DNA of 64,000 nucleotides from positions 11,425-75,424 of IMG/VR virus record IMGVR_UViG_3300049458_000012, one strand, 5' to 3'. Both the position numbers and the translations under genes were made by a program. Each line of letters starts with the position of its first letter. The first letter of the stretch is position 1. Below the pieces are notes generated by a model. The model did not search any database, was not told the origin of the DNA, and was given only the letters and a program-made list of their open reading frames with translations. The stretch is from a virus. Taxonomy: Duplodnaviria > Caudoviricetes. This document shows, in pieces, positions 617 through 63,383 of this stretch.

Positions 617-648
617 GGGTATTGATTTGCAAAACGGAGAACTCATTT

Positions 649-918
649 ATGATCAATGGCTCGGACGGGGCACCCTTGCCCACGAAGACGGAAGTTGAAG
701 TTACGTTTCATTGCATGATGCGATCTAACGGCGCTAAGTTGGTTGTGTTCACGAAGGCGGGCGCGTACATCGGGGATGTGGAGTTCGAAGGTACGAACCC
801 GCTGGCCTACCCGGTGCTGGCGGCAGTGATGCAGCAATTCGTGCAGTCTACTCAGTCGGCTGTGCAGACGGCTCCGGCATCCGTATTGGCGGGCCTCGAT
901 CGGGCGACCAAGCGGTGA
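649..918 (+). CDS. Hypothetical protein
   Basis: GGAGA SD before ATG 649; stop overlaps next GTG. Confidence 0.55.
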   Translation: MINGSDGAPLPTKTEVEVTFHCMMRSNGAKLVVFTKAGAYIGDVEFEGTNPLAYPVLAAVMQQFVQSTQSAVQTAPASVLAGLDRATKR

Positions 919-1127
919 GCGTTGTGTTCGAGTGGCCGAAGTTCGATGTGCATGCGCCGTTCGATGCTCCGCTGCGGATGCGTGAGTTGCATGCCAAGCG
1001 TGAGCACGAGCAGGCAATGGAATACATGCGCAGTGAAGAGTTTCGACGTCTCATAGAGCCGATCGTGAAAAAGGCATATGAGACCATGCGTGGCGGCCCG
1101 GTGGGTGTTGCTGGTCGAACGGTGTGA
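915..1127 (+). CDS. Hypothetical protein
   Basis: GTGA overlap with the previous gene; 70 aa ORF. Confidence 0.5.
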   Translation: MSVVFEWPKFDVHAPFDAPLRMRELHAKREHEQAMEYMRSEEFRRLIEPIVKKAYETMRGGPVGVAGRTV

Positions 1128-1200
1128 CGTTCTCCTTCGCCGTGCGCTCAGTGCTGAGCTACCCCCTCGGTATGATCCTGCCGGGCCGCCACGCATGGCG

Positions 1201-2826: not shown

Positions 2827-2830
2827 AGGC

Positions 2831-3016
2831 ATGATCGATGCATACTTCAAACTCGCCGTCATCCGACAGGTGCGAGCTTGGTTGCTCGATGGAGGGGCCA
2901 CGCACTCCGTGCTGCAGGATCGTTGCGATTTCATTCAGTGGGGGCCGGGTGGAGCGTGTCGTTGTTTCGGGGAGCGCAACCACTCCGGCAAGCATGAGTA
3001 TCCGGTGTGCAATTGA
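2831..3016 (+). CDS. Small Cys/His-rich hypothetical protein
   Basis: ATG 4 nt after the TerL stop; C..C.C...H..KH pattern. Confidence 0.4.
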   Translation: MIDAYFKLAVIRQVRAWLLDGGATHSVLQDRCDFIQWGPGGACRCFGERNHSGKHEYPVCN

Positions 3017-3033
3017 AAGAGGAGAAAAGACCA

Positions 3034-3219
3034 ATGGCGAAGATCAACGCAGATGAAGCGATCGAATACGGCACCACGCTCGTCAATGCGGGAGTCGCGG
3101 CGAAGCGGTGCGGGCTGACGGAGTTTGATTTGGCGGAAGCCGCCCGGCCCGATGTGCAAGAGGCAATGGAGCAATGGGCGAAGGACAAGGCGAGCCCTCC
3201 ACCGCCCGCGAAGGACTAA
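3034..3219 (+). CDS. Hypothetical protein
   Basis: GAGGAG SD upstream of ATG 3034. Confidence 0.55.
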   Translation: MAKINADEAIEYGTTLVNAGVAAKRCGLTEFDLAEAARPDVQEAMEQWAKDKASPPPPAKD

Positions 3220-3226
3220 CGGTAAA

Positions 3227-3257
3227 CGGGCCCCTGGCCAATAGGTTCAGGGGCCCG
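3227..3257 (+). terminator. GC-rich hairpin (terminator or processing stem)
   Basis: 10-bp stem cgggcccctg/caggggcccg; no clear U-tract. Confidence 0.4.
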
Positions 3258-3293
3258 AGCCGCTTATCCAACTCACCCGAGGAGTTTGCACCG

Positions 3294-6104: not shown

Positions 6105-8314
6105 ACACTCGTGTATTCTTGCGTGGAGTGCTGTGCGCCTTAGCGCTGACATTGTTCGTGCCACGCTTGGCACTCGGCACAGCGAGTGTTTTGCAAACCG
6201 GCCACGCCGAGACCGCGAGCGGCGTGGCGACGTTCACTGTGACCCCAACGGGCTTGACGGCGGGAAGTCTGGTTGAGGTCTGCTCTGAACTCAACCGCAA
6301 CAATACGGTCAGCTCGGTCAGTGGCTCGGTCAACGGGAGTTACACGGTAACGGGAGCGGATGCGGATGACGGAACCGCGCGACGGTTGTCTTGTTGGCGG
6401 AAGGAGAACGTTGCGGCGGGAAGTGAAATAATCACCTTCACTTACAACTCCTCCACCAGTGCCCCGGGCATCGCGTGGGTTGAGGTTGGAGGGGTGAAAA
6501 CCAGCTCCGCGTTGGACATCGCTGCGAGTGGACGCGCACAGACGACGCCAACCACGGGTACGGATCTCGTGGTGAGCAATGCAGCCACGAGCACCGCGCA
6601 ACCTGCCATCATTATTAGTTTCAGCGGTGCGGTGTTCGCCAATGGACCTGCTGCAGGCACCGGGTTCACTAGCGCGGCCCTGGTCGATTGGGGCGGCACG
6701 GGCCCGGGTGGACAGGTCCGTATTGAGTCCAAGCGCATCACGGCCACGGGGTCGCAGACCTCTACTTTCACTGCCACCTCCAACGTGACGCACCTCACCA
6801 CGATGGCGGTGTTCGATGAGCTGACGGTAACGAATCCAACGTTCACTTCCGCGCCCGCGTTCTCTTCACGCACCACCAGCTCGATAGTCGATGCATCGAC
6901 TGCGAGTGAGACGGGTACGTATTATGGCGTGCTGGTCACCAGTGGATCGGGCGCACCGAGCTGCACCCAGGTGAAGGCGGGCCAGGATAGTACCAGCTCC
7001 TTCGCGTATGCGGCCAACAGTGTGGCGGAGACGGCCACAGTGAGCGCGAACCTGACTTTTGGATCGTTGACGAGTGGGACGGTGAAGGACGGTTACTTTT
7101 GCGTGCATGGCACGGTTAGTAATCTGGACAGCACGGTCTCTTCGATCCTGAATCAGTACAAGACGCCCGCATTCTCTGTGGCTCCGTCCGTGACGGCGCG
7201 CAGCACGACCTCGTACACCGTGGGGCAGACGCTTGATGGTGCGGGCTCGGTGGCCCTCGTCACATGCAAAACGCCCGACACCGCCCCCACGGGCACCCAG
7301 GTGAAAGCGGGCCAGTGCACGGGGAACGTCACCGCGACCTCTTCCGCCACCAAATCGACAACGGGCGCCGACACGGAGACCTTATCCGGGCTGGACACGA
7401 CCATTCGCCCGATCTATACGGTGTACGAGGTGGGCACCTATGGCTCGATTGATTCCGCGGTGACGGCGATAGCCTCACAGTTGTTGTCGGCTCCCGCGGG
7501 CCAGCAATACATTGTGGCTGCGGCCCTCCCGTGGCCCGGAGGCGCGAATTCGGTCTTTGCGAATATATCCCCCGCGGTCGTCAATGGGGACGTGTGGCAA
7601 GCGCCGTTGGTGGCGTCTCCGAGCCCCAGCAACTATGCCATTACACAAGGCACCGATGGCACCTTTCAGATCGCCACCGCGGGGGATCAATCGCGCCAGT
7701 CTTTCGTCTCCAACGTGTATGACGTGTCGGTGGATGCTTGGTCTGGAACGTTCACCTCGTACGTCAACGATCAATCACCCGTTTGTACGGGGCTGCCTTC
7801 GAGCCCTGGCGGCGCTCCCGGAGTTACGACAACGCAGACGGGCGTAGCACTAACTCCGATCGATTGGAATACGTTCTTCACGGATGCGGAGAACGATGCG
7901 CTCACAATTTCGCTGTCGCCTTCGTCCTTGAACTCGATCCCCTTGAACTTGGGGCTGAGCAGCGGAGTATTGTCGGGCTCGATCGCCGCAGCGGGCACCT
8001 CGTTGCTGACGTTTCGAGCGACAGACATTGCCGCGGAGCACACGGACTGCGCCGCTTGGTCGATTTCAGCATTCACCACGGTCACCGTGCCGTCGGTTGT
8101 TGGGCAGAGCTTCTCCGCGGCTAGCAGCACTTTGACGGGGCTGCAGTTGACCGTGCCCGCAGAGCAACAGATCTACCGTTGCCGTCGAAAGACCGCATAT
8201 GACCAGATCCTGAATCAAACTCCCTCCGCTGGCGCCGTGGTCAACCCATTCACGACCATGCAATTGACGGTCGCCAAGGCTTGTGCATTCTTCAACGCTC
8301 CGGTGGTCCAATGA
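6101..8314 (+). CDS. Secreted Ser/Thr-rich multi-Ig-like protein with C-terminal PASTA domain
   Basis: Signal-like N-terminus; two tandem P.F..AP....R..TS...AP...QVKAGQ repeats; Ig/cadherin-like FTDAENDAL; PASTA-like VTVPSVVGQSFSAASSTL...ILNQTPSAGAVV. Confidence 0.65.
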   Translation: MNTRVFLRGVLCALALTLFVPRLALGTASVLQTGHAETASGVATFTVTPTGLTAGSLVEVCSELNRNNTVSSVSGSVNGSYTVTGADADDGTARRLSCWRKENVAAGSEIITFTYNSSTSAPGIAWVEVGGVKTSSALDIAASGRAQTTPTTGTDLVVSNAATSTAQPAIIISFSGAVFANGPAAGTGFTSAALVDWGGTGPGGQVRIESKRITATGSQTSTFTATSNVTHLTTMAVFDELTVTNPTFTSAPAFSSRTTSSIVDASTASETGTYYGVLVTSGSGAPSCTQVKAGQDSTSSFAYAANSVAETATVSANLTFGSLTSGTVKDGYFCVHGTVSNLDSTVSSILNQYKTPAFSVAPSVTARSTTSYTVGQTLDGAGSVALVTCKTPDTAPTGTQVKAGQCTGNVTATSSATKSTTGADTETLSGLDTTIRPIYTVYEVGTYGSIDSAVTAIASQLLSAPAGQQYIVAAALPWPGGANSVFANISPAVVNGDVWQAPLVASPSPSNYAITQGTDGTFQIATAGDQSRQSFVSNVYDVSVDAWSGTFTSYVNDQSPVCTGLPSSPGGAPGVTTTQTGVALTPIDWNTFFTDAENDALTISLSPSSLNSIPLNLGLSSGVLSGSIAAAGTSLLTFRATDIAAEHTDCAAWSISAFTTVTVPSVVGQSFSAASSTLTGLQLTVPAEQQIYRCRRKTAYDQILNQTPSAGAVVNPFTTMQLTVAKACAFFNAPVVQ

Positions 8315-9660
8315 GCATACAAACATTGCCTATTGAGAGTTCGGTCACAATCCGGATTCTCGTCAATGCGCCGGACACAGGGCTGCCTGCGCCAGCGGAC
8401 TTCGCCCCAACAATCGATATCTTCGATGGGGCCTCTGCGGTGCCCGTGTTGGCGGGCATTGTCTCCGCACCAGTGGGGGCGATCGTTGGGGATTATTCCG
8501 CGGTGCTGCCGTTCACCACAGCCAACACGTTTCAGACGGGTCACTCGTACACCGTGAAACGATATGTGACGATCGGTGGGGACGTCTTCACATACTCGGA
8601 CGGCACGTATTTGCTGACCGCGGTGAATGTGGCGCAGTCCGTGGACAACGCAACCGGCATTGCGGCCATCAAGGCGAAGACCGACAACTTGCCTTCAGAC
8701 CCCGCGGACGAATCGCTCATCATTGCGGCCACCACGGCCCTGGCCAACTCGATTGCGGCCCTGGCCGCGACTCTCGGGGCGCCCGTAACTACGATCGCGG
8801 GCGACATTGGGGCGGTGAAGACAGTGAGCGATACGCTGTCAACGCGGTTGACGCCCACTCGGGCGGGATACTTGGACAACTTATCAGCGGGCGCGGTGGC
8901 CCTCGCCACTACGGCGGCTGCGATCAAGGCGAAAACGGATAACTTGCCCGCGGCGCCGGCAGACGAAACATTGATCATTGCGGCCACTAATGGCATTGTC
9001 GCCCTCATCAATGCGTTGACGGCCACGCTTGGCGCTCCCGTCACCACGATCGCGGGCGACATTGGCGCGGCGAAAGCGGATACAGGGACGTTGATCACGC
9101 GGCTCACGGGCGCGCGAGCGGGATTCCTGGATAACTTGTCTGCGGGTGCGGCAGCGCTGGAGGCCACTGCCCAGTTGATCAAGGCGAAGACGGATGGGCT
9201 GCCCGCGGCCCCCGCGGATGAAACGGCAATCATTGCTGCCATCACCGCGGTCATGACTCGATTGGGTGTGCCTGCGAACGTTACCATTGCGACCGATATC
9301 GCGGGATTGGGCGCGAGACTTCCGGATGTGTTGGTGGGTGGATTTTTGAAGGTGGTGGTGCAGCAGATCGCCAACGGGGTTATCACGACGCCAGCTTTCG
9401 CGGCCAACGCGATCGACGCCACAGTGCTGGCGGCATCCGCAGCGACGGAGATCGCTACCGCGGTGCGCAACCTCGTCGTTGAGGTGAATGGCAACCGTAC
9501 ATTGCAGCAGGCTCTCTCCATCATCCTCTCCTTCGCCGCGGGCATCACGACGGGCGGAGGCAACACGCTCAAGGACCCGAGCGGCACGGACGTTCGTATA
9601 GCGGCAGTGACGAATTCGAGTAATGAGCGCATCGGCATCAACTTGACACCGAGCCCGTAA
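8311..9660 (+). CDS. Ala/Thr-rich helical repeat protein (putative virion/fibre-like)
   Basis: ATGA overlap; about 2.5 copies of an ~85-aa unit AIKAKTDNLP..PADE..IIAA...RAG.LDNLSAGA. Confidence 0.7.
   Translation: MSIQTLPIESSVTIRILVNAPDTGLPAPADFAPTIDIFDGASAVPVLAGIVSAPVGAIVGDYSAVLPFTTANTFQTGHSYTVKRYVTIGGDVFTYSDGTYLLTAVNVAQSVDNATGIAAIKAKTDNLPSDPADESLIIAATTALANSIAALAATLGAPVTTIAGDIGAVKTVSDTLSTRLTPTRAGYLDNLSAGAVALATTAAAIKAKTDNLPAAPADETLIIAATNGIVALINALTATLGAPVTTIAGDIGAAKADTGTLITRLTGARAGFLDNLSAGAAALEATAQLIKAKTDGLPAAPADETAIIAAITAVMTRLGVPANVTIATDIAGLGARLPDVLVGGFLKVVVQQIANGVITTPAFAANAIDATVLAASAATEIATAVRNLVVEVNGNRTLQQALSIILSFAAGITTGGGNTLKDPSGTDVRIAAVTNSSNERIGINLTPSP
8659..9250 (+). repeat. Intragenic tandem repeat (~255-nt unit)
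   Basis: atcaaggcgaa(g/a)ac.ga recurs at about 8668, 8923 and 9178. Confidence 0.75.
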
Positions 9661-9667
9661 GTGCCTC

Positions 9668-10132
9668 ATGGGTTACCTAGCTTCAAACTACCTACCGGCG
9701 CACTACTTCAACACGCATTACTTTGCGACGGAGGGAGGCACCTCTCCGCCCGGGTTGGATGCGCAGTTTGGTTTTGCAGACATCAATGTGTACAGCACCA
9801 CGGGGCTGCCCGTCGCGCGCTCCGCGTTCATTGAGAAGTCCGCGTGCATCGTGACCATTGGTTACTTCAATGGGCTGGGGGCGCCGTTCGTGCCCAATAT
9901 TGTGACATATCAAGTGCTCGATGTGATCAGCAAAAAGATCCTCGTGCCCGCCACGGCGCTGATCCCGGCCTTGATCAATAAGATCACCATCACCGCCGCC
10001 CAGAACGCTATGGTTAGTTTGACGCGGGACTCGGAAGGGCACCAAGTGCTCTTCCAGATAACGGACGCCACGGGCAACGTTAGTTACGCGCTGGATGAAT
10101 ACGACTTGCTGCGTGTGCCGGGAGCGGTGTAA
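9668..10132 (+). CDS. Hypothetical protein
   Basis: 154 aa ORF; stop overlaps the portal ATG (TAATG). Confidence 0.65.
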   Translation: MGYLASNYLPAHYFNTHYFATEGGTSPPGLDAQFGFADINVYSTTGLPVARSAFIEKSACIVTIGYFNGLGAPFVPNIVTYQVLDVISKKILVPATALIPALINKITITAAQNAMVSLTRDSEGHQVLFQITDATGNVSYALDEYDLLRVPGAV

Positions 10133-54224: not shown

Positions 54225-54517
54225 CGCTTCACTCCCGCTCGCCACAGCCTCAGCCGGGCGAGTAATTGGTTGTAGTCTTTGCGCAACCGACAAATTTCAA
54301 ACTTATCTATGTAGTGCGCACCCCAGAAGATCGGGCGCCAGGGGTCAAGCGCATCGGCCCGCTCCGCGGCGCTTACCGGGCCATCGCACCCGTATCCAAT
54401 CCCAACGCTTGTATTCTCGGTGCCGTCCAAAGCGAATCTCCTTCCAATGAAACAACTTGCCCCTGCCGAATCATCCACCCGCCCCAACGGACGCAGAAAT
54501 AAAAACGGGGCAGCCAC
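54221..54517 (-). CDS. Hypothetical protein (start uncertain)
   Basis: Stop overlaps the next ATG. Confidence 0.35.
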   Translation of the reverse strand: MAAPFLFLRPLGRVDDSAGASCFIGRRFALDGTENTSVGIGYGCDGPVSAAERADALDPWRPIFWGAHYIDKFEICRLRKDYNQLLARLRLWRAGVKR

Positions 54518-54545
54518 CCGTAGTTGGATGACTGCCCCGCGGACT

Positions 54546-55193
54546 TCACGATGCGACCACTTTCACGTATCCCTTCGCCTTCAGCTTCTGCACGCACCCG
54601 AGGACTTGCGCCCGGGTCATCTTCTCGAACTTCTTCTCCAGCGTATCGAGAAGGATGCCGTTGTCGCCCGCCTTCTTCACGGCGGCAAACACCTGCGATC
54701 GGGGCGACTCCGCGTTGAAGCGGATATCGTCCTTGCGCCCCGCAGCGGTCAATTCGACCTTCATCGCCTCTCCATTCACGCGAGGGGCACGAGCGGTCTT
54801 CGCTTTCGGGGGATTCTTGGCCTTGCGGCCTTTCTTCGTCTTCACGGGTTGCGTCTCCTGTTCAGGGGTTATGGTTGGTTTCAAAAAATCGCCCAGCACT
54901 TCCGCTGGGCTGGGTTCGAGTGCCGGGGGCGGCTGATTGTTGAGCACCTCCATCACTCGCTTATGGGCAGTGGATCGATCGGCAAAACGGGTGACCGGTT
55001 TCACGCCCGGGGTTGCGTTGAAGATGCGCACGAGGTCCGGCCCACTCAGCTGACTCAGATCTCCATCAACGATGGAGTAGGCCGGGGTGTTGGCTTCGTG
55101 GCACTCTTCCGCTGCGGCGCCATTGTCAATGAAGCGGCCCAGCACCGCGTATGTCTTCATGCTGATCACAATTATCGACGACATTGCATTCAT
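54546..55193 (-). CDS. Hypothetical DNA-binding protein (Lys-rich linker, C-terminal winged-helix-like)
   Basis: GAAGGAG SD; R.QV...V....G......E......QKL..KGYV. Confidence 0.65.
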   Translation of the reverse strand: MNAMSSIIVISMKTYAVLGRFIDNGAAAEECHEANTPAYSIVDGDLSQLSGPDLVRIFNATPGVKPVTRFADRSTAHKRVMEVLNNQPPPALEPSPAEVLGDFLKPTITPEQETQPVKTKKGRKAKNPPKAKTARAPRVNGEAMKVELTAAGRKDDIRFNAESPRSQVFAAVKKAGDNGILLDTLEKKFEKMTRAQVLGCVQKLKAKGYVKVVAS

Positions 55194-55214
55194 CTCCTTC
55201 TTTCAGGGGTTCAG

Positions 55215-55469
55215 TTAAAAACTACTCGGCGGCATTACGTCGGCAGCATAGTTCGCGTAATAGCGTGCCGTGTTGGACTCTGCCGCGCTCACCCGAGCGC
55301 GTGCGCGAGCGGCAGCAATTTGCTGCTCTCCGATGCGGTGCGCGCAACAGGACGCGGACCCTGTGCCGCCGTACATCTGCTTGCCTGTAGCCACCTTCTT
55401 CGCGTAGCTGGAGGCGCCGTTGGCCTTCGAAAGGCGCCCAACTTTGACGGTTTCGCGATTGCGTTTCAT
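55215..55469 (-). CDS. Basic hypothetical protein immediately after hammerhead HH10
   Basis: ATG 9 nt after the ribozyme 3' strand. Confidence 0.55.
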   Translation of the reverse strand: MKRNRETVKVGRLSKANGASSYAKKVATGKQMYGGTGSASCCAHRIGEQQIAAARARARVSAAESNTARYYANYAADVMPPSSF

Positions 55470-55478
55470 GACATCATT

Positions 55479-55534
55479 GGTCTCATCAGTGTGCGCACAT
55501 TACGCACAGACGGGCCTCGCGGCCCGTTTCGACC
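55479..55534 (-). ncRNA. Type II hammerhead ribozyme HH10
   Basis: Minus strand reads GGUC GAAA CGGGCC GCGA GGCCCG UC^ UGUGCG UAAUGUG CGCACA CUGAUGA GACC; predicted cut 55509/55508. Confidence 0.95.
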
Positions 55535-55735
55535 TCATCGGGGGACCTCTCGTTGCCTACGGATGAAAATTTCTTCTCTGTCGATGATCACCTCTCGGGC
55601 AGCGATGAAGTGCAGTTTCACTTGCTGCCCCTGGATGCTGGCCACTTGAATTCGAATCACCTCCCCTTTGCAGGTTATGAAAATTGACTCTCCAACCCTC
55701 CGACCGAGGACCAGTCCTTCACTTTGCGTTGCCAT
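55535..55735 (-). CDS. csrA: CsrA/RsmA-family carbon storage regulator homologue
   Basis: LVLGRRVGESIFI...I.V.SI.G.QVKL...A..EV.IDREEIF. Confidence 0.85.
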   Translation of the reverse strand: MATQSEGLVLGRRVGESIFITCKGEVIRIQVASIQGQQVKLHFIAAREVIIDREEIFIRRQREVPR

Positions 55736-55752
55736 CGCCACTACTCCTTTTG

Positions 55753-56352
55753 TCACCAGTAAAGTTTGCCGGGATTCAAGTCCGTGAGCATCCCCACTAC
55801 GTCGATTGGCACCAGGGCCTTCAACCGATCGTGTTGCGCCATGGCGGTGATTATCGCCTTCGCGGGCCACCCCTCGATAGGTGCGTTGGCCAGTGCATGC
55901 CAGCACTCGAACGTCATACCGCGAGGCGGGGTGATGTGCGCGAGAAAATCACGAGCCTCCTTATTCATGCCCACGTCCAAACGGATCACTTCCGCATTTC
56001 TCGACATTGATCGCGCATGCAGGTTCAACGCCGTCAAGTCGATCTTCCCGGCTCCTTTCGGGAAGTAATCCTCCGCATTACCGTGCCGATACACGACCAA
56101 CGCGGGCGGCGCCCCTTCGTATGACCAAAGAGTTGGATCGAGGATCTTTGCAGAGCGAAGGTACGGATTACCGATCACCACCCAGGAGTGCTGGCCCATG
56201 ATGTGACGGTGAAACCCGCGAGCCACCCGCGCCTTGTTGCTCAATAACCCGGTACGTACGAGCGCGAGAGAAGCGGCATGGCATTGCCGGGCCCACATCT
56301 CCAGGCCCCCGATTGCCTCAACAAGCGCGTTTTTCGAAAGCCGTGGCTTCAT
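55753..56352 (-). CDS. Hypothetical protein
   Basis: C..ASL..V, HSWV, ILDPTLWSY motifs (papain/transglutaminase-like triad possible). Confidence 0.55.
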   Translation of the reverse strand: MKPRLSKNALVEAIGGLEMWARQCHAASLALVRTGLLSNKARVARGFHRHIMGQHSWVVIGNPYLRSAKILDPTLWSYEGAPPALVVYRHGNAEDYFPKGAGKIDLTALNLHARSMSRNAEVIRLDVGMNKEARDFLAHITPPRGMTFECWHALANAPIEGWPAKAIITAMAQHDRLKALVPIDVVGMLTDLNPGKLYW

Positions 56353-56573
56353 GGCGTCCCCTCCGCGTCCGTGCGTTTCAAAAAGTTCGTGCGCGGGTCC
56401 TTCGATGGCGGCCAAGCGTGATCGCGCCTCGAATCGCTCGCGACCTCTTCCAACGCGACAATGGCTTTTTGCACATTGAGTGCCTTTTCGCCTTCGAGAC
56501 AATCGTTGTAAGCCGCTACGAGCTTCGCCAGATCCTCTCGCATGTCGGCCAGTTTGCCTACGACCGTTTTCAC
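56349..56573 (-). CDS. Hypothetical protein
   Basis: GTGA overlap. Confidence 0.45.
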   Translation of the reverse strand: MKTVVGKLADMREDLAKLVAAYNDCLEGEKALNVQKAIVALEEVASDSRRDHAWPPSKDPRTNFLKRTDAEGTP

Positions 56574-56824
56574 AGTGCCTCCACCCGCTGCGTGATGAAC
56601 TGCAGCCCGTTGCGCCAATCCGGCTGTGCAGGCATCGGGGTTTTATCAACCCTGACAACCGCACAGACCGCGGGACCGCGCGGCGTATCCGCCACCAGCA
56701 GCGCCCCTGGGACCACTTTCACCCCACGGCGAATCCCGTAGGTGTACACCTTATACAGGTTGTGGCCTTCGCCCCCGAGGAATCGCACCCCGATTGTGTT
56801 GTGCTTGAATTGAGTTCGTTTCAT
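56570..56824 (-). CDS. Hypothetical protein
   Basis: GGAGGAG SD; K.YTY..GALLV..TP.G..V..V motif. Confidence 0.6.
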   Translation of the reverse strand: MKRTQFKHNTIGVRFLGGEGHNLYKVYTYGIRRGVKVVPGALLVADTPRGPAVCAVVRVDKTPMPAQPDWRNGLQFITQRVEAL

Positions 56825-56849
56825 TACATCTCCTCCATTTCATTTCATG

Positions 56850-56906
56850 CCCAGACGGCGCCTCCTTCGCGCCGTTTCGCCGGAATCTCACCGGCTCATC
56901 AGTGGG
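56850..56906 (-). ncRNA. Type I hammerhead ribozyme HH9
   Basis: CCCA CUGAUGA GCCGG UGAGAUU CCGGC GAAA CGGCGC GAAGGAG GCGCCG UC^ UGGG; stem I extends GUG/CAU past an AA bulge; cut 56854/56853. Confidence 0.9.
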
Positions 56907-56907
56907 T

Positions 56908-57021
56908 TCACTTCCCGTCACCCTCCTTCGCGGACAATTCGCTGCGGCTCGGGGTTCCAACCCAAATGCCCGCAGCGAATGCCAGCACTACAGCGGCCAG
57001 GACGATGCTCCAATGGATCAC
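56908..57021 (-). CDS. 37-aa membrane peptide (not in ORF track)
   Basis: MIHWSIVLAAVVLAFAAGIWVGTPSRSELSAKEGDGK; GTGA overlap; stop abuts HH9. Confidence 0.55.
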   Translation of the reverse strand: MIHWSIVLAAVVLAFAAGIWVGTPSRSELSAKEGDGK

Positions 57022-58079
57022 GCGGCCTCCGCGATTGCCCGCCAATCGGTCTTCGGCAGCTCCAGGATGCGAGCCCCGTCCACCTCCAGCTGCGTCGCAC
57101 GCTCGTAGGAGGTCTCGTCCTGCGACTGCCGCGTGATGGCGTTCATCAGCCCGTAACGAGAAAGGTCCCCGCCTTCGATGAGGTGCCGCAGGATACCTCC
57201 CGCCGTTCCTTCGGTGTACCCGAAGTGCTTGGCCGTCACCTCCACGACGGAAGCGAGGTTCTTCGCCTCCAGACGCTGTTGCGTCGCGTCACGCATCTTC
57301 TCAACGAGCTTCTCCAGCACGTCGCGGGTGAGCACGCCGCGCACCGTGTCCTTCACCTTCATGAAGAACGCGGCATCGTCCAGCTGCTTGGTGCGATCGG
57401 AGTACAGCTCAAAAGCGTCCTCCGTCTCCGAGGCGCGCTTGCCGACGTGATAGCGGCGCTGGCCATAGTCCGGCGACACCATGCCGTTCTTGCAGATCAA
57501 CCGGTAGATGAGCGGCGCCACCTGCAACGCTCCAGAGCCAACCTCCGAATTCGACACCATGATGCCGATCTGCACCGGGTCACCCACCTTCACCTCCGTC
57601 TCGATCTTCGGCAACACGGCCTTCAAGTAGAAGCGCCGCTCCGTGAAGGAGGTGGATTCCACCCGGATCGAGTCATGGCTCATCAGCTCCGGCAGCACCG
57701 CCTGGGCCAGCTCGTAGTTATCGAGCGGGCGGTAACGATCGGAAAGAAAGGCCCTGGCCTTCCCGTCCAGCACCCGTACCATGCGGCGCGTGGGCTCTTC
57801 CTGGAAGAAGGTGTTGAGGGTGCGAGCATACAGGGCCGGGTGAGCGGTGCGGATGCGGTCCGCGTACTCCCGCGGTACCTTGTAGTGAGCCAGGGCCTGC
57901 TCGCGGAAGATCTCGCCTTCTTCGAGTGCGATCGGCTTCGCCCCCGGCAGCGCCAGCTCCAAACCCAGCTTGGCGTTCATGCTGAGCTGGGTGTCGATGT
58001 TGGCCACAAAGTCGCGCTTCGCAGCGTTGCGACGGTCGAGTTCAGTGGCCATCTGGGTCAGGGTCAAGTCGGTTTTCAT
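57018..58079 (-). CDS. DUF932/DUF945 family protein
   Basis: RAFLSDRYRPLDN, SNSEVGSGAL.V..LIYRL.C.NG, L.RYGL.NAIT. Confidence 0.85.
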   Translation of the reverse strand: MKTDLTLTQMATELDRRNAAKRDFVANIDTQLSMNAKLGLELALPGAKPIALEEGEIFREQALAHYKVPREYADRIRTAHPALYARTLNTFFQEEPTRRMVRVLDGKARAFLSDRYRPLDNYELAQAVLPELMSHDSIRVESTSFTERRFYLKAVLPKIETEVKVGDPVQIGIMVSNSEVGSGALQVAPLIYRLICKNGMVSPDYGQRRYHVGKRASETEDAFELYSDRTKQLDDAAFFMKVKDTVRGVLTRDVLEKLVEKMRDATQQRLEAKNLASVVEVTAKHFGYTEGTAGGILRHLIEGGDLSRYGLMNAITRQSQDETSYERATQLEVDGARILELPKTDWRAIAEAA

Positions 58080-58105
58080 TGCATTGTCTCCAAAAAGTTA
58101 GGTTT

Positions 58106-58159
58106 GGTCTCGTCAGTGCGGACCTTATCCGCAGACGGGCCTCGCGACCCGTTTCGACC
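58106..58159 (-). ncRNA. Type II hammerhead ribozyme HH8
   Basis: GGUC GAAA CGGGUC GCGA GGCCCG UC^ UGCGGA UAAGG UCCGCA CUGACGA GACC; cut 58134/58133. Confidence 0.95.
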
Positions 58160-58160
58160 T

Positions 58161-58613
58161 TTAAAAGAATCGGCTCCTGCGCAGACTTCCTTGTGCCCGC
58201 CGCGTGCTGAGTGTATCCCGGGACTCGTGTGCGCGTTCGAGTCCTTGATTGTAGAGATCGAGGAAGGGCTGCAGATCGGTCATGCGTGATTCACGCAGAT
58301 AAACCTCGATCTTCCGGCGCACATGCGGGCCGAAGCCCACCCGGACAAGCTGCCCGTCCAGCGTGACCCCGTATGAACGATCGGAGACGTTGCGCCGTGT
58401 GCCGCTCTTAATCAGCAGTGTTGTCACGATCCATCCAAAGCGCTCCGTGTTATAGAGCGTGAGACTTCTCGGCTGCGGATAAGCCAGCAACTTGTTCGCC
58501 TCGCGCCACTTATCGTAGGCCGCAACGCTCTTGTGAGGGCAGCGGTGCTCCAGGTCTGCTGCCGTAATGCCCGCGGGCAACGCGATCTCGGGAAGTTTGG
58601 TTTTGGCTTTCAT
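58161..58613 (-). CDS. Hypothetical protein
   Basis: Flanked by HH7 and HH8; the track's longer start runs through the ribozyme. Confidence 0.65.
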   Translation of the reverse strand: MKAKTKLPEIALPAGITAADLEHRCPHKSVAAYDKWREANKLLAYPQPRSLTLYNTERFGWIVTTLLIKSGTRRNVSDRSYGVTLDGQLVRVGFGPHVRRKIEVYLRESRMTDLQPFLDLYNQGLERAHESRDTLSTRRAQGSLRRSRFF

Positions 58614-58620
58614 TTCATTC

Positions 58621-58675
58621 GGTCTCATCAGTGACGGCATTTACCGCCAGACGGATCTCGCGACCCGTTTCGACC
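58621..58675 (-). ncRNA. Type II hammerhead ribozyme HH7
   Basis: GGUC GAAA CGGGUC GCGA GAUCCG UC^ UGGCGG UAAAUG CCGUCA CUGAUGA GACC; cut 58650/58649. Confidence 0.95.
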
Positions 58676-58789
58676 TCATCTCAAGTAATGGACACACGTC
58701 GCCAGCTCCGCGCAGAAGATCCCCAGCAGGATAAAAGCCAACACGGTTCTGGTCCATCGGACAGTGCGATGCTTCATTGTCATTGTCAT
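58676..58789 (-). CDS. 37-aa membrane peptide
   Basis: MTMTMKHRTVRWTRTVLAFILLGIFCAELATCVHYLR; AGGAG SD; stop abuts HH7. Confidence 0.55.
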   Translation of the reverse strand: MTMTMKHRTVRWTRTVLAFILLGIFCAELATCVHYLR

Positions 58790-59151
58790 TCTCCTGATCT
58801 CATAGAAGGCAACTCTTCCATCACCTCGGTGATCGATTTCACGGCCCCGTACCGTTGATAAGCGGCCCACGCATCCGCGGCCACCCCGGTGTCTCCCGCT
58901 CGCGCCATCCAATACTTGCGCGCACTCGGGGACAACGCATTCCACCAATCCATGCCGAGATCCTCCACGGCGAGCGTCATGCCCACGAAATGAGGTGAAG
59001 CACGCAGGCGACGGGCTTCACGGTTTGCCGCTTCCGGGGTGGTGAATTCAAAAGCCCCGCTGCTGAGCGCCGTGTACCCCTCGTCACCGTCCTTTCGGAA
59101 ATACCAGTACGCGCGGCGCTGGGCGTCAACACATTTTATCTTGATGCTCAT
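58786..59151 (-). CDS. Hypothetical protein
   Basis: ATG 6 nt after HH6; GMDWWNALS...R.YW...G...A.AW motif. Confidence 0.65.
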   Translation of the reverse strand: MSIKIKCVDAQRRAYWYFRKDGDEGYTALSSGAFEFTTPEAANREARRLRASPHFVGMTLAVEDLGMDWWNALSPSARKYWMARAGDTGVAADAWAAYQRYGAVKSITEVMEELPSMRSGE

Positions 59152-59157
59152 TGCATT

Positions 59158-59213
59158 GGTCTCATCAGTGCTGGCACTTCACCAGCAGACGGCGCGTCAG
59201 CGCCGTTTCGACC
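59158..59213 (-). ncRNA. Type II hammerhead ribozyme HH6
   Basis: GGUC GAAA CGGCGC UGAC GCGCCG UC^ UGCUGG UGAAGUG CCAGCA CUGAUGA GACC; cut 59188/59187. Confidence 0.95.
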
Positions 59214-59376
59214 TCGGTGTCATCGCGGCTCGCAGCGCCGCATCGCGTTCGGCCTTACGCGCGTGAAAAGCCGCGCGTCGGGCTTCATGCTCAATGCGCG
59301 TGGTTTCGGCGCTCTCGGGCGGCTGAGCCGTGGCCCGCTCGAAGAGTTTGAACAGATCGTCAGCGAGGGTTTTCAT
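59197..59376 (-). CDS. 59-aa protein whose stop lies in HH6 loop III (not in ORF track)
   Basis: MKTLADDLFKLFERATAQ...AAMTPRSKRR; ATGA overlap upstream. Confidence 0.5.
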   Translation of the reverse strand: MKTLADDLFKLFERATAQPPESAETTRIEHEARRAAFHARKAERDAALRAAMTPRSKRR

Positions 59377-59639
59377 GACCAGCGGTCCACCATTTCAGCC
59401 ATCTGCGCATCAATGTCAGCTTCCGCGAACACATCGACCTCGGCTTGTGTGCGGGTGCGTGGTGGGACAAACACGGCCTCTCCAACCGTCATCATTCGAT
59501 CCAGCTCCGCGCGCCGAGCAGCATTGAAGCGCTGAATGGCCACCAGCTCCGCGGCCCTGGCCACCTCAACCATCCGCTCCAATCGCTCGCGCTCCTGGCG
59601 AACAACGGTGACATCCTCTCTCAACTCGTTAAGTGTCAT
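59373..59639 (-). CDS. Coiled-coil hypothetical protein
   Basis: ATG 7 nt after HH5. Confidence 0.6.
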   Translation of the reverse strand: MTLNELREDVTVVRQERERLERMVEVARAAELVAIQRFNAARRAELDRMMTVGEAVFVPPRTRTQAEVDVFAEADIDAQMAEMVDRWS

Positions 59640-59646
59640 GGCATTC

Positions 59647-59702
59647 GGTCTCGTCAGTGACGGCACTTTACCGCCAGACGGATCTCGCGACCCGTTTCGA
59701 CC
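59647..59702 (-). ncRNA. Type II hammerhead ribozyme HH5
   Basis: GGUC GAAA CGGGUC GCGA GAUCCG UC^ UGGCGG UAAAGUG CCGUCA CUGACGA GACC; cut 59677/59676. Confidence 0.95.
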
Positions 59703-59705
59703 TTT

Positions 59706-60221
59706 TCAAGGCGGGCATTCGAGCAGCGTGCCCGTTTTCCCGTTCTCATCCGGACAATCCACGCGCAGCCCCCAATTCATGCGCGCAATGATCAGCACGG
59801 CAACGATCGAGAACACGGCATAAGCAACCGTCTTCCACTTGGCAATTCGAGCTTGCACCGCGTTCGCCTCCGCATCGGCCCGAGCGGCCAACCTTCGAGC
59901 GCGACTCTTCAAGGCCCCTGCCCGCATGCAATCGAACTCATCGTATTCCTTTTTCTGGATCGCATAATCCAGGGCCTGGGACGTAAGCCCGAAGCGCTCA
60001 GCAACGCGCGTGAGCAGGGCCTCGTAAACTTCCTGCTCCCGGGTGGAGTTGGCCGGGCCGCTCCACTCCCCACCATCAAACTGCGCATCTGCCTCCGCGC
60101 CAATGGCGAAAGATTCCCCAATCGGCGCCCACAGCCGCACCATGGCCTTTACCGCGAGCTTCGTGCGGTCTGCCGGCCAGTTGATGGTGTTGTGGCAAAC
60201 AATCCGTTTGGTAACTATCAT
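59706..60221 (-). CDS. Hypothetical protein with C-terminal TM helix
   Basis: GAGGAG SD after HH4; WKTVAYAVFSIVAVLIIA. Confidence 0.6.
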   Translation of the reverse strand: MIVTKRIVCHNTINWPADRTKLAVKAMVRLWAPIGESFAIGAEADAQFDGGEWSGPANSTREQEVYEALLTRVAERFGLTSQALDYAIQKKEYDEFDCMRAGALKSRARRLAARADAEANAVQARIAKWKTVAYAVFSIVAVLIIARMNWGLRVDCPDENGKTGTLLECPP

Positions 60222-60234
60222 TTCATTTCTCCTC

Positions 60235-60289
60235 GGTCTCATCAGTGCCCGCACTTACGGGCAGACGGTGCCGGAGCACCGTTTCGACC
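60235..60289 (-). ncRNA. Type II hammerhead ribozyme HH4
   Basis: GGUC GAAA CGGUGC UCCG GCACCG UC^ UGCCCG UAAGUG CGGGCA CUGAUGA GACC; cut 60264/60263. Confidence 0.95.
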
Positions 60290-60296
60290 TCTTCCC

Positions 60297-60713
60297 TCAA
60301 CCGCGCGCCACTGGTAAGTTTACATCCAGGAGCTTCTCGCGTGCCAACTTGATCTTCGCCTCCAACCGGTCCAGCTCTTCGTACATTCCCTGTACGCCCC
60401 AGGCCGGGTTGCAGCGTGGATCGGCCTGGATCACGCTGATGGCTACGGATGCCGCACGTAACGCGGTTCGCTTGCGCACTTCTTCGCGCGCCACGTCGAT
60501 ATCCGTGCGCAGTGTTTCGCGCCCATGGGGACTGGAGACTTTGTCCACCGCGCGCCCCTCTTTATCGAAGCGCTTGGTGATCTTCCCGCCGTCCCCGAGA
60601 TCGCGAACCGCCACGACTTGCCCCGTGGGCGTGATCTTCGTCACTTTGTATCCGAAGACGATGCCGTGATAGCCATCGACAGCAACCTCTTGATCAACTT
60701 TCACTTCGTTCAT
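60297..60713 (-). CDS. Hypothetical protein (SH3/KOW-like N-terminus)
   Basis: VKVDQEV...KVTKITPTGQV...RFDKEG. Confidence 0.65.
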   Translation of the reverse strand: MNEVKVDQEVAVDGYHGIVFGYKVTKITPTGQVVAVRDLGDGGKITKRFDKEGRAVDKVSSPHGRETLRTDIDVAREEVRKRTALRAASVAISVIQADPRCNPAWGVQGMYEELDRLEAKIKLAREKLLDVNLPVARG

Positions 60714-60737
60714 TGCATTGCCCCTTGAAGTTGGTTT

Positions 60738-60792
60738 GGTCTCGTCAGCACCCGCTTCACGAGTGGACGGCGCTCAGCGCGCCGTTTCGACC
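60738..60792 (-). ncRNA. Type II hammerhead ribozyme HH3
   Basis: GGUC GAAA CGGCGC GCUGA GCGCCG UC^ CACUCG UGAAG CGGGUG CUGACGA GACC; cut 60766/60765. Confidence 0.95.
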
Positions 60793-61014
60793 TTATGCGC
60801 GTAGTTTCCGGATGGTCTCTTCGAATTCGCGGATGTGTTCGCGAGGAACAACGATCGCAAACTTCGCGACCTGCCCCATGTCGTTGACCATTGCGGTGGA
60901 GGGGATATCTTGCGCAGCTATGCGGTTGGCCTTGCCCTTTTCAATCAGCAAGTCTGCGGCCACTTCTTCTATCTGCCCAAAGATGGAATAAACCTCAGTT
61001 CCAGAACGTTTCAT
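60793..61014 (-). CDS. 73-aa hypothetical protein
   Basis: ATG 6 nt after HH2; stop TAA abuts HH3. Confidence 0.6.
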   Translation of the reverse strand: MKRSGTEVYSIFGQIEEVAADLLIEKGKANRIAAQDIPSTAMVNDMGQVAKFAIVVPREHIREFEETIRKLRA

Positions 61015-61020
61015 GGCGTT

Positions 61021-61075
61021 GGTCTCATCAGTGACGGCATTTACCGCCAGACGGGCCTCGCGACCCGTTTCGACC
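61021..61075 (-). ncRNA. Type II hammerhead ribozyme HH2
   Basis: GGUC GAAA CGGGUC GCGA GGCCCG UC^ UGGCGG UAAAUG CCGUCA CUGAUGA GACC; cut 61050/61049. Confidence 0.95.
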
Positions 61076-61079
61076 TTTG

Positions 61080-61277
61080 TCAGTGTGCTGCTGGAATCCA
61101 AAGAATCCAATGATCGGTGCAAGGTGCCCAAACGCGCCCCAGAGGATCGGTGACATACATGTCCGGGGTAGAAGTGCCGGAAGTCTCTTGCGTTTTCGCT
61201 TGGCTCATCCGGGCAGCCAGCTCACTGTCCACGCGATAAGCGCCGATCCCTTCGAGTTGGACAATAACGTTGCTCAT
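61080..61277 (-). CDS. 65-aa hypothetical protein
   Basis: GGAGA SD; stop 4 nt before HH2. Confidence 0.6.
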   Translation of the reverse strand: MSNVIVQLEGIGAYRVDSELAARMSQAKTQETSGTSTPDMYVTDPLGRVWAPCTDHWILWIPAAH

Positions 61278-61294
61278 TTCATACTCTCCAAGAG

Positions 61295-61317
61295 TTGGTT
61301 TGGTCTCATTCGCCTTA
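61295..61317 (-). pseudogene. Internally deleted hammerhead relic
   Basis: UAAGGCGAA-UGAGACC-AAACCAAC keeps the 5' (AAGG(U)CGAA) and 3' (UGAGACC AAACCAAC) ends of the repeat but lacks stems I/III and the cleavage site. Confidence 0.65.
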
Positions 61318-62154
61318 AATCTTTTCGACGCGGTACACCTCGTGAGCCCGCAGTGAGTTCCTCGCGGACCAATCCACCGTTACCCCGTTCACGACCCCGG
61401 CCAAGTGCCGGTTCGTGCGCATCAGGTAGTTGGCCCCATCTGCCCAGACCTTGTTGAAGCGAGTGGGGTGGTGCGTCGTGACGTTCTTTAGTCCGGCGTG
61501 AACACCGGGGTAGCGGCGGATAAAGCTCTTGGGCGCAATGTTCGTCACTCGGAACCCGAGCGCCTTGGCAGCTTGCGCGGTGAGGTGGAAATAAGTTCCT
61601 TTGCCGGGTTTACGGCCTGCCGCGGCCAAGGCCGCGAGACACCGCGCGTAGTCGATCCCCGTCACTGCGCTCAGTGCGATAACCGCACAATCACGCTTTT
61701 CGTTGTTGGCACGAGACTTCGTTTGCAAGGCGCAATACTCGACCGGGGTGCGACGAGCGCGGATCGTTGCTCGACGCTTAGCGGCGGCACCGACGTAATC
61801 CCGGGAGGGCTTTCTTGACTTCGACTCGGGCACTGAGTCGCGAATCGCTTTCTGCGTCTCGGACGAGATGCCCAAAATGTTCATCACGGTCGGCGCAGGC
61901 GTCGTGGCCTCGGTATATGCCTTCACCCCTTCCGCGGTCATCTGGACCGTTGCCTCGTTGCCCGCACCGCCGCAAACAACGAAGCCTTTCTTTACGAGGC
62001 TGGAGACGACACCGGGGATCGACCGCAACTTCAGGTCGGAATTGTCCCCGATCGTGAACGACCAAACGGTTGCGGTCAGCGAGCCGCTGTCGTTGTATTC
62101 ACTCTTCACGATCGCGGTGAGGGCCTTCAGCTCGTTCGAAGTTAGTTTAGACAT
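61315..62154 (-). CDS. Two-domain protein: winged-helix-like N-terminus plus NEKRDCAVIALS..TG..Y domain
   Basis: GGAGA SD; GVVSSLVKKGFV...V.MT.EG; DC.V.A and H..GVVNG...DWS motifs. Confidence 0.65.
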   Translation of the reverse strand: MSKLTSNELKALTAIVKSEYNDSGSLTATVWSFTIGDNSDLKLRSIPGVVSSLVKKGFVVCGGAGNEATVQMTAEGVKAYTEATTPAPTVMNILGISSETQKAIRDSVPESKSRKPSRDYVGAAAKRRATIRARRTPVEYCALQTKSRANNEKRDCAVIALSAVTGIDYARCLAALAAAGRKPGKGTYFHLTAQAAKALGFRVTNIAPKSFIRRYPGVHAGLKNVTTHHPTRFNKVWADGANYLMRTNRHLAGVVNGVTVDWSARNSLRAHEVYRVEKI

Positions 62155-62183
62155 TTCATTTTCTCCGGGGAATAAGTTGGTTT

Positions 62184-62274
62184 GACTCGTCAGTGCTGCG
62201 GGAACCGCCCAGCCAGCAGACGCACCCCGAAGGCTTGCGGCCTTTATGCGTAATCGCGCGGGGTGCGTTTCGTC
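62184..62274 (-). ncRNA. Expanded type II hammerhead ribozyme HH1
   Basis: GAC GAAA CGCACCCC [31 nt incl. AAGGC-CGCAA-GCCUU hairpin] GGGGUGCG UC^ UGCUG [GCU GGG CGGUU CCC G] CAGCA CUGACGA GUC; cut 62219/62218. Confidence 0.85.
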
Positions 62275-62434
62275 TTGAGTCCAACTTGCTCTCGGCAACG
62301 GGCATCCTTTTTCCCGTATTGCCCGGAATCGTCCGGTTGGGTGCGAACCGTTTCGGCGTCATCCCTCGGTTCTCCGGTGCGTTAGTCACCTTGCGGACCT
62401 TCGGGGCGCCCGGCACGGTCTGCCGGGGAAGAAG

Positions 62435-62464
62435 AGTATGCCTCGAAGTGCTGCGCAACGGCAA
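62435..62464 (-). promoter_or_regulatory. Possible sigma70-type promoter upstream of the ribozyme array
   Basis: TTGCCG-N18-CATACT on the minus strand; weak match by eye only. Confidence 0.3.
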
Positions 62465-62513
62465 CATATTTCGGCATCTTTTTCACGCCCCAGATCATAT
62501 GCTTACGTGGCTT

Positions 62514-63383
62514 TTAGACCTCCGCCCCCTCCCCTTCTGCCGTCTCCTCGTCATCCGTCCGCGGACGGGCCAGGAGCTTAAACTCCTTGGCCACGGGGAT
62601 CGCGGCGCGCACCTCCGCGTAGATCGCCGGATTGGAGTGCCGGGTGACGTGCGTCACGGTGAGCGCGAACCAGGAGTTTTCCCCCTTCGTCCGCAGCACC
62701 GTCCCCAGCCGCCAGATCTCGGACGGGGCCACCGGCGCCTTGTTCTCCCCTACCCGGGCGGAGCGCAGCGAGATGAGTGAGTTCCACTCCCGCGCGGCCT
62801 TCAACTGGCTCTTCGTGAGTGAAACCAGCAGCGGCTCGGATGCCGTGCCCGTCTGCGAGTCCACGATCTGGCAGTAAAAGTTGCGGTGCTCGGTCATCTC
62901 CTTGTCTTCTTTCGTGATGGCCCGGTTCTTCTCATCCCGCTCCAGCCCCTGGAACTCCATTACGGCGTCCGTTGTGGCCTCGAACTCGGTGATGAATCCC
63001 CCGCCGTCCTCGCGCTTGTTCCAAACACACATCGTATGTGTCCGCCGCACCACAGAGACGTCGATCGTAGCGGCCAGGGCCTTGGTGAGGGAGTTCATGA
63101 GCATCCCCGGGCGGGCCTCCTCGATGAACTCGGGCTTGCCTTGCTGCACGGCGGGCGAGAGGGCCTGCAGAATCACGAGGAACGGGACCGCGAATGCGCC
63201 CGCATCCACCCCCTCGTCGAACCCCGCTCCCGCATCCGCACCGAAGAGTTGCTCACTCACCGCCTGATCCACGGGCGTGGCTGGAGGGGTGGGTTTCACC
63301 GGAACCGGGGCCCGGCTCGCGGGTGGTGCGGGCTTCGCAGCCGTCTTCGCGGGGGTGGGCTTTGTTGCTTGTTTCATAGCCAT
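62514..63383 (-). CDS. Putative ssDNA-binding/annealing protein
   Basis: GAGF, AVPFLVILQALSP, W..REDGGGF, SL.KSQLK..R.WNS; acidic C-terminal tail DDEETAEGEGAEV. Confidence 0.65.
   Translation of the reverse strand: MAMKQATKPTPAKTAAKPAPPASRAPVPVKPTPPATPVDQAVSEQLFGADAGAGFDEGVDAGAFAVPFLVILQALSPAVQQGKPEFIEEARPGMLMNSLTKALAATIDVSVVRRTHTMCVWNKREDGGGFITEFEATTDAVMEFQGLERDEKNRAITKEDKEMTEHRNFYCQIVDSQTGTASEPLLVSLTKSQLKAAREWNSLISLRSARVGENKAPVAPSEIWRLGTVLRTKGENSWFALTVTHVTRHSNPAIYAEVRAAIPVAKEFKLLARPRTDDEETAEGEGAEV

Follow-up and report, generated by a model that had tools for sequence, protein, structure and literature searches.

Hammerhead ribozymes encoded in prophages often flank individual genes or short gene blocks, with several occurring together, and have been proposed to process long phage transcripts to mRNAs of single-gene or operon length (Perreault et al. 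2011, PLoS Comput Biol, PMC3088659). Triple arrays from three bacteria cleave during in vitro transcription, one of them also in E. coli (PMC3088659), and cleavage in cells of Desulfovibrio vulgaris has been reported for type II hammerheads beside phage-like genes (PMC8782182). The clustering of prophage hammerheads was restated in the review of de la Pena et al. 2017 (PMC6155905); what hammerheads do for bacteria and phages has been debated since 2011 (PMC6765202, PMC6155905). Here we describe ten hammerheads, nine of type II and one of type I (hereafter denoted HH1–HH10), on the minus strand of the Caudoviricetes record IMGVR_UViG_3300049458_000012. They occupy positions 55479–62274 (6.8 kb) of the window, that is, the 64-kb stretch analysed, which is the right-hand part of a 75,424-bp IMG/VR record scored as 100% complete by CheckV. 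As judged from their structure and placement, these hammerheads probably cleave, constitutively or nearly so, and thereby segment the RNA of the operon in which they lie. The array is a large, well-preserved example of a known arrangement and not a new kind of system.

The prophage clusters of Perreault et al. and the present array both combine mixed hammerhead types, which lie on the coding strand and flank small, non-conserved phage genes, singly or in short blocks, and the same role is proposed for each, namely the cutting of a long phage transcript to gene- or operon-length mRNAs. The class of gene involved is also similar (ardA in the earlier clusters, a DUF932 gene here). DUF932 genes share plasmid and phage entry regions with ardA. 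Whereas the arrays tested earlier hold three copies, the present one comprises ten copies and a remnant in a CheckV-complete genome of an uncultivated soil phage; it further differs in five copies that are fused to a start codon and lack a separate Shine–Dalgarno (SD) sequence, in having no detectable pseudoknot of loop I with the tail, and in signs of recent duplication within the genome.

Arrays of similar or larger size also exist in other viral contigs. A scan of IMG/VR with a GGUC...GACC type II pattern returned at least 120 stretches; among the matches listed, L140 carries 12 hammerheads in 5.4 kb (868–6251, plus strand), L141 carries nine in 4.1 kb (641–4738, plus strand) and L028 nine in 2.9 kb (2145–5086, plus strand), in each case placed between small genes. 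Copies within these arrays were located with a covariance model, as a regular-expression descriptor missed most of them. Pairing in the 30 copies amounts to 98.7%, 162 cells show double changes, and the three arrays have no protein similarity to the array described here. In L028, where stem II differs between neighbours, UUGGAGAAC and then a start codon come after every copy. The initial annotation of the window, made from its letters, had proposed that one transcript cuts itself into pieces, had suggested a search of other contigs for the same architecture, and knew of no ordered array of this kind in a phage. The search succeeded, and the claim of novelty falls with it, given arrays of 9–12 copies in IMG/VR, the multiple flanking hammerheads of prophages and the processing role already proposed for them (PMC3088659). 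The segmentation reading itself stands as regards structure, coding strand and cut sites, and is the best explanation we have; its presentation as an undescribed architecture does not stand, and an early-gene operon, a single transcript and cleavage itself are at the level of inference.

The type II core pattern (CGAAAC..GTC..CTGAYGA) has eight matches in the window, against 0.11 expected from shuffled sequences, and all eight lie in the array region, on one strand and between genes; a permuted type I pattern has a single match in the window, at 56854–56902 (HH9). HH1, which has a long insert in stem III, lies outside the core pattern and was recovered by Rfam (31.3 bits) and by a covariance model trained on the nine type II copies, for which the canonical structure was set by hand. 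This model recovers all nine type II copies at 47–87 bits (HH1 at 47.4 bits), and finds no extra copy anywhere in the 75,424-bp record, be it inside or outside the window. With the Rfam Hammerhead_II model, one match (60228–60289; 38.2 bits) exceeds the gathering threshold of 37 bits, and six further copies are found at E<1 with 23.3–33.2 bits. A check against the Rfam models, advised in the initial annotation, is therewith borne out for these seven but not throughout: the copies at 58621 and 59647 were dropped by the cmscan filters, although they reach 85–87 bits with the copy-built model, and HH9, the type I copy, scores only 23 bits on Hammerhead_3.

The core CUGA(U/C)GA, GAAA, GUC and the A15.1–U16.1 pair are present in all ten elements, and the adjacent pairs are G10.1–C11.1 and U1.1–A2.1, with C–G at 1.1–2.1 in HH3. 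Pattern matches, Rfam and the copy-built model together confirm the ten minus-strand elements, their coordinates and their full cores as first annotated. The minimum-free-energy fold of each isolated element is a three-stem hammerhead (10 of 10), with stem II open and stems I and III closed in nine, and the type I arrangement in HH9. An RNAalifold fold of the copies pushed stem I into the core (CGUC with GAYG), which is not the catalytic fold, and was dropped. Over the nine type II copies, pairing is kept in 96.9% of cells and 9 of 18 pairs have changed on both sides, values that none of 500 shuffles matched (controls with slid partners were 26–48% paired), although part of this inter-copy agreement reflects the shared recent ancestry of HH2, HH5 and HH7, which are 91–94% identical. 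The compensatory pairing in stems I and III asserted in the initial annotation is thus upheld. Stem II (GGUC/GACC; 4 bp) is identical from HH2 to HH8 and shared by eight of the nine type II copies.

That the motifs are chance matches or inactive relics is extremely unlikely in view of these data. Such a reading could draw on the scores of nine of the ten copies, which lie under the Rfam gathering threshold, and on one clear relic in the array; it is contradicted by the eight exact matches on one strand and between genes, by the covariation and the folds, and by the conservation of hammerhead positions in a related phage (L131; below). For the motifs as structures, it is effectively refuted.

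The topology (open stem II, closed stems I and III) and the core are common to the type II copies and to Rfam family RF02276. Relative to the consensus of that family, stem II is only 4 bp long here and the 3′-tail pseudoknot is missing or weak, which depresses the Rfam scores to 23–33 bits. The predicted cut follows C17 in each element. In the order of transcription, HH1 (62184–62274; cut after C 62219) is an expanded type II hammerhead with a 3-bp stem II (GAC/GUC), a stem III of about 10 bp capped by two small hairpins and a branched stem I; its flanks, AAGUUGG and CCAACUU, are a possible extension of stem II. At the junction of the first two genes of the array (g1/g2; genes are numbered g1–g18), a hammerhead remnant retains the 3′ end, GAAUGAGACCAAACCAAC (61294–61311, minus strand), with a weak model match at 61292–61321. 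A candidate 5′ half of this relic, GUCGAAAAG, proved to be g1 codons homologous to L131 coding sequence, and only the 3′ remnant counts. HH2 (61021–61075; cut after 61050) lies immediately before g3, which starts 6 nt past stem II with no separate SD sequence, whilst HH3 (60738–60792; cut after 60766), the C1.1–G2.1 variant with CUGACGA, abuts the TAA stop of g3. HH4 (60235–60289; cut after 60264) is the sole copy above the Rfam gathering threshold, and HH5 (59647–59702; cut after 59677) is followed by the g6 start 7 nt past stem II.

In HH6 (59158–59213; cut after 59188) the ribozyme and the preceding gene share sequence: the last five codons of g7 and its UGA stop (59197–59199) overlap the element at 59197–59213 (minus strand), across the 5′ strand of stem II, GAAAC and half of stem III, so that the stop sits in the stem III loop, 9 nt ahead of the cut. 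HH7 (58621–58675; cut after 58650) is 94% identical to HH5 and 91% to HH2, and HH8 (58106–58159; cut after 58134) lies upstream of the DUF932 gene. HH9 (56850–56906; cut after 56854), the type I copy, has an open stem I (CCCA/UGGG) and closed stems II and III, with GAAGGAG as the stem III loop. HH10 (55479–55534; cut after 55509) abuts the UGA stop of a CsrA-like gene. All ten elements are on the minus strand, and the predicted cuts give pieces of 1169, 284, 502, 587, 489, 538, 516, 1280 and 1345 nt, exactly the nine lengths listed in the initial annotation.

Hammerheads occupy every junction that lacks an overlapping stop and start, bar two, g1/g2 (which has the remnant) and g15/g16. Genes inside a piece mostly overlap via ATGA or GTGA, and as the junctions without a ribozyme are overlaps of this kind, the pieces match translationally coupled groups; comparison of the open reading frames (ORFs) with the cut sites gives one to four genes for each coding piece, as had been proposed. 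Stop codons lie 0–6 nt upstream of stem II (that of g7 inside HH6), and all of them precede their own cut site, hence cleaved pieces would retain whole ORFs.

Two designs of module are present. HH1, HH3, HH4, HH8 and HH9 are followed by a 13–29 nt tail with a GGAG-like SD sequence; the tail opens with AAACC(U)AACU after HH1, HH3, HH8 and the remnant, and the same tail stands behind the L131 hammerheads. In the compact modules (HH2, HH5, HH6, HH7 and HH10) the start codon lies 6–9 nt past stem II with no separate SD sequence, and GAGAC of the ribozyme takes the place of the GGAGAC found at other genes. It is possible that this GAGAC serves as a weak SD sequence which is locked in stem II until cleavage. 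For these modules self-cleavage could be obligatory to unmask the start, which would make the ribozyme part of the ribosome-binding site.

Nine genes downstream of a hammerhead or the remnant have the start context AUG-NNA-UGA, in which the second AUG is the start codon. This context is found 10 times within the array region, compared with 0.23 expected (minus strand; 61282, 60718, 60226, 59644, 59156, 58618, 58084, 56848, 56829 and 55474). It is also present outside the array, at SD-preceded leftward starts (52659, 51306, 49300 and 41435, minus strand), and therefore appears typical of starts in this phage and not a feature of the ribozymes. The first AUG would open a mini-frame of two codons, the stop of which overlaps the true start.

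The geometry of the elements and of their junctions supports the following scheme for segmentation. A leftward polycistronic mRNA, carrying all ten hammerheads, would run from upstream of 62275 to a terminator near 54505; each ribozyme would fold in the 55–95 nt gap between stop and start and cut after its GUC. The products would be a 5′ leader, nine internal pieces of 284–1345 nt and, at the 3′ end, a last piece of about 1 kb, with each coding piece corresponding to one translationally coupled group of one to four genes. From the anatomy of the elements, the upstream piece at each cut is predicted to terminate in a 2′,3′-cyclic phosphate at the GC-rich hairpin of stem III, and the downstream piece to begin with a 5′-OH and the stem I hairpin. 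As both ends would be capped by hairpins, the pieces may be protected against exonucleases and against decay that depends on a 5′-monophosphate, and every gene group would gain a standard leader that is independent of its neighbours and of host RNases. At the compact modules (HH2, HH5, HH6, HH7 and HH10) the folded ribozyme would occlude the initiation region, with cleavage and melting of the 4-bp stem II freeing the start. We consider the motifs likely to be active because their cores are complete, their stems covary, they fold as hammerheads, they lie on the coding strand, and similar arrays have published activity.

This scheme has counterparts among better understood systems. RNase III cuts the polycistronic early mRNA of phage T7 at intercistronic hairpins, and the resulting mRNAs keep protective terminal hairpins. 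The array would likewise yield discrete, hairpin-ended mRNAs; in contrast to T7, the RNA is predicted to cut itself with no host enzyme, leaving 5′-OH and 2′,3′-cyclic phosphate ends in place of the 5′-phosphate and 3′-OH left by RNase III. In synthetic ribozyme insulators such as RiboJ, a hammerhead placed before a cistron strips the upstream context and leaves a hairpin-headed leader. The placement before cistrons is the same here, but the elements are natural and their effect on expression is a prediction.

The close apposition of ribozymes and coding sequences also bears on whether cleavage is conditional, such that terminating or initiating ribosomes, or the CsrA-like protein, set the folding of each hammerhead and make the array a translation-coupled switch of relative cassette output. 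The stops 0–6 nt before stem II, the end of g7 within HH6 and the five starts 6–9 nt after stem II speak for such a switch, as does the CsrA homolog encoded inside the array. CsrA binds GGA-in-loop motifs, and the stem III loop of HH9 is of this form; the GGA loop is, however, found in just one of the ten copies. In addition, L028 shows the array layout without such a need, as it has an ordinary SD sequence well past each ribozyme and no CsrA gene nearby. Regulated cleavage of phage hammerheads was itself raised by Perreault et al. (PMC3088659), yet for this array we hold a conditional switch to be improbable.

Comparison of copies within the genome and with related phages indicates how the array may have arisen. 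HH2, HH5 and HH7 share their 91–94% identity from GGUC through the start codon, where identity ends; HH8 and HH10 are 79–85% identical to these three, and HH3, HH4 and HH6 are 68–81% identical to other copies in the window. The near-identical copies indicate recent duplication within the genome, and the array would thus have grown by duplication of the compact module, comprising hammerhead and start context.

The closest relative found, L131 (IMGVR_UViG_3300010371_000060; DUF932 71% identical), has just four hammerheads. A long one before the g1 homolog (5269–5382) is the counterpart of HH1, and an intact type II copy directly after the g1 homolog (5866–5937) stands at the position of the remnant in the window. 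The third follows the g3 homolog and one small ORF, whilst HH3 directly follows g3, and the fourth (9905–9965) is a near-identical homolog of the type I HH9, located directly before the DUF932 gene in L131 and after it here. The two phages hence differ in the side of DUF932 on which the type I hammerhead and g13 are found, and L131 lacks the block g4–g10 together with the five hammerheads in it. More distant relatives vary further: no ribozyme was found in L132 or L133 (DUF932 identity of 56% and 50%, respectively), and L134 (42%) carries two Twister-P5 ribozymes (9898–9966 and 8257–8316, plus strand; 44.8 and 41.7 bits, both passing Rfam gathering), one of which ends 35 nt before the DUF932 start with the second upstream. 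In L082 (25%), type II hammerheads lie on both sides of the DUF932 gene.

Twister, pistol and other self-cleaving ribozymes have been found in the same phage contexts (review, PMC6765202), although an Rfam scan of the window reveals none of them. Their folds differ from that of the hammerhead, but the position appears interchangeable, with Twister-P5 before DUF932 in L134 and a hammerhead here. The DUF932 gene is preceded by a type II hammerhead in this phage, a type I hammerhead in L131 and Twister-P5 in L134, and the use of different ribozyme classes at one gene argues for selection on cleavage itself. Copies are also gained, lost and relocated rapidly, which speaks against an essential role for any one of them and in favour of ribozymes as markers of the boundaries between shuffled gene cassettes. 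As an observation in its own right, a self-cleaving ribozyme repeatedly precedes or flanks the DUF932 gene in L131, L134 and L082, over a range of 25–71% protein identity; a literature search found no paper linking DUF932 with ribozymes, and at the DUF932 homolog of Faecalibacterium phage Roos the intergenic gaps are too short for one.

This turnover is what gives some weight to a role at the level of DNA, in which the modules serve as recombination joints or travel with mobile, promoterless cassettes, and RNA cleavage is secondary or serves the cassette. The HH2/HH5/HH7 module is 91–94% identical although the flanking genes are unrelated, hammerhead-bounded gene groups (g4–g10) are absent from L131, the type I hammerhead and g13 are swapped around DUF932, ribozyme content varies greatly among relatives, and one copy has decayed to a remnant. 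Conservation of the catalytic core and covariation of the stems nonetheless imply selection on RNA and not on DNA identity, most copies are merely 68–85% identical and would be poor substrates for homologous recombination, and the occupation of this position by a twister in L134 favours cleavage as the trait under selection. A cassette role is compatible with RNA cleavage and is partly supported; as the primary explanation it has an appreciable chance but is rather unlikely.

The conserved stem II also raises the question of religation, whereby the hammerheads would join excised cassettes into circular, translatable or spliced mRNAs. That hammerheads can catalyse ligation is established. As stems I and III are closed and stem II is shared, the two ends of a cassette could rebuild a complete hammerhead around the ORF and support the reverse reaction; eight of the nine type II copies have the same stem II, and the six consecutive cassettes between HH2 and HH8 have compatible ends. 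If true, this would be a natural system of ribozyme-made circular mRNA in a DNA phage. The geometry is unfavourable, as a 4-bp helix closing a loop of 230–1200 nt is weak and HH1, HH9 and HH10 interrupt the chain; moreover, neighbours are compatible in only about half of the cases in L028, and the invariance of stem II is better explained by recent common descent. The idea was also raised by Perreault et al., who sought circular or spliced products of tandem arrays and detected none (PMC3088659), and we regard it as very improbable for this array. Tandem hammerheads of retrozymes and viroid-like RNAs excise unit-length RNA (PMC4918200, PMC5680766); there the repeats are of type I or III and bound one non-coding unit that circularises, unlike the different protein-coding cassettes between type II copies found here.

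Several observations count against segmentation as set out above. The ribozymes abut stop codons and five start codons, and ribosomes could block their folding. Nine of the ten copies score under the Rfam gathering threshold. In most type II members, loop I and the 3′ tail that follows stem II form a pseudoknot of at least 4 bp (PMC3088659); here, candidates exist only in HH3 (UGAAG/CUUCA) and HH1 (GGUU/AACC), and loop I–tail pairing was no better than with shuffled tails, in an analysis where a greedy definition of stem I shortened the loops. This accelerator of most type II hammerheads may thus be missing or weak, although the conserved A residues that flank stem II and a U-R-A in loop I may supply a different contact. 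A sigma-70 scan found no promoter on the minus strand, and a search of sequencing runs returned no RNA run with the array sequence; co-transcription of all ten elements is a prediction. The stabilising and translation-unmasking effects are ones that we infer from the anatomy of the elements. Finally, the four hammerheads of L131 and their absence from L132 and L133 indicate that the array is dispensable for phages of this type.

The 18 genes carried on the pieces (g1–g18; 54546–62154, minus strand, from the ORF list) are mostly small and of no recognisable family, and minus-strand ORFs occupy the spaces between the hammerheads. That the minus strand is the coding strand is shown by Pfam matches for CsrA, DUF932 and Pam3_Gp34, and by the L131 homologs of g1, g3, g13 and the DUF932 protein. 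Directly after g18, a terminator-like hairpin (54505–54540, minus strand) with a 15-bp stem and a following U run is probably the 3′ end of the unit. At the other end, a non-coding leader of about 240 nt (62275–62513, minus strand) separates a Pam3_Gp34-like gene (62514–63383, minus strand; Pfam) from HH1, and may contain the promoter. Searches of the flanked proteins with Pfam, PHROGs and NCBIfam matched only DUF932 (g11; 57018–58079, minus strand), CsrA (g16; 55535–55735, minus strand; PF02599, E 4.6e-12), whose gene ends at HH10, and unnamed PHROGs; no paralogy was found among these proteins.

The only sequencing run with the array sequence is a DNA run from a soil metagenome, which may be the source sample, and the phage is an uncultivated soil phage. 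Searches of its terminase and DUF932 protein against isolated phages pointed to no host. The locus lies in a complete genome, combines one decayed with ten intact copies and has a clear terminator, which makes it a good test case for asking whether cleavage stabilises or insulates cistrons or licenses translation, not least as both module designs, with their own SD sequence or fused to the start, occur within one array. Relatives that carry four hammerheads, none, or another ribozyme class at this gene can be used to address how such arrays grow. Among the smaller ORFs, two of 37 amino acids (58676–58789 and 56908–57021, minus strand) each encode a single hydrophobic segment, overlap the stop of the preceding gene through ATGA or GTGA, and lie directly upstream of a hammerhead.

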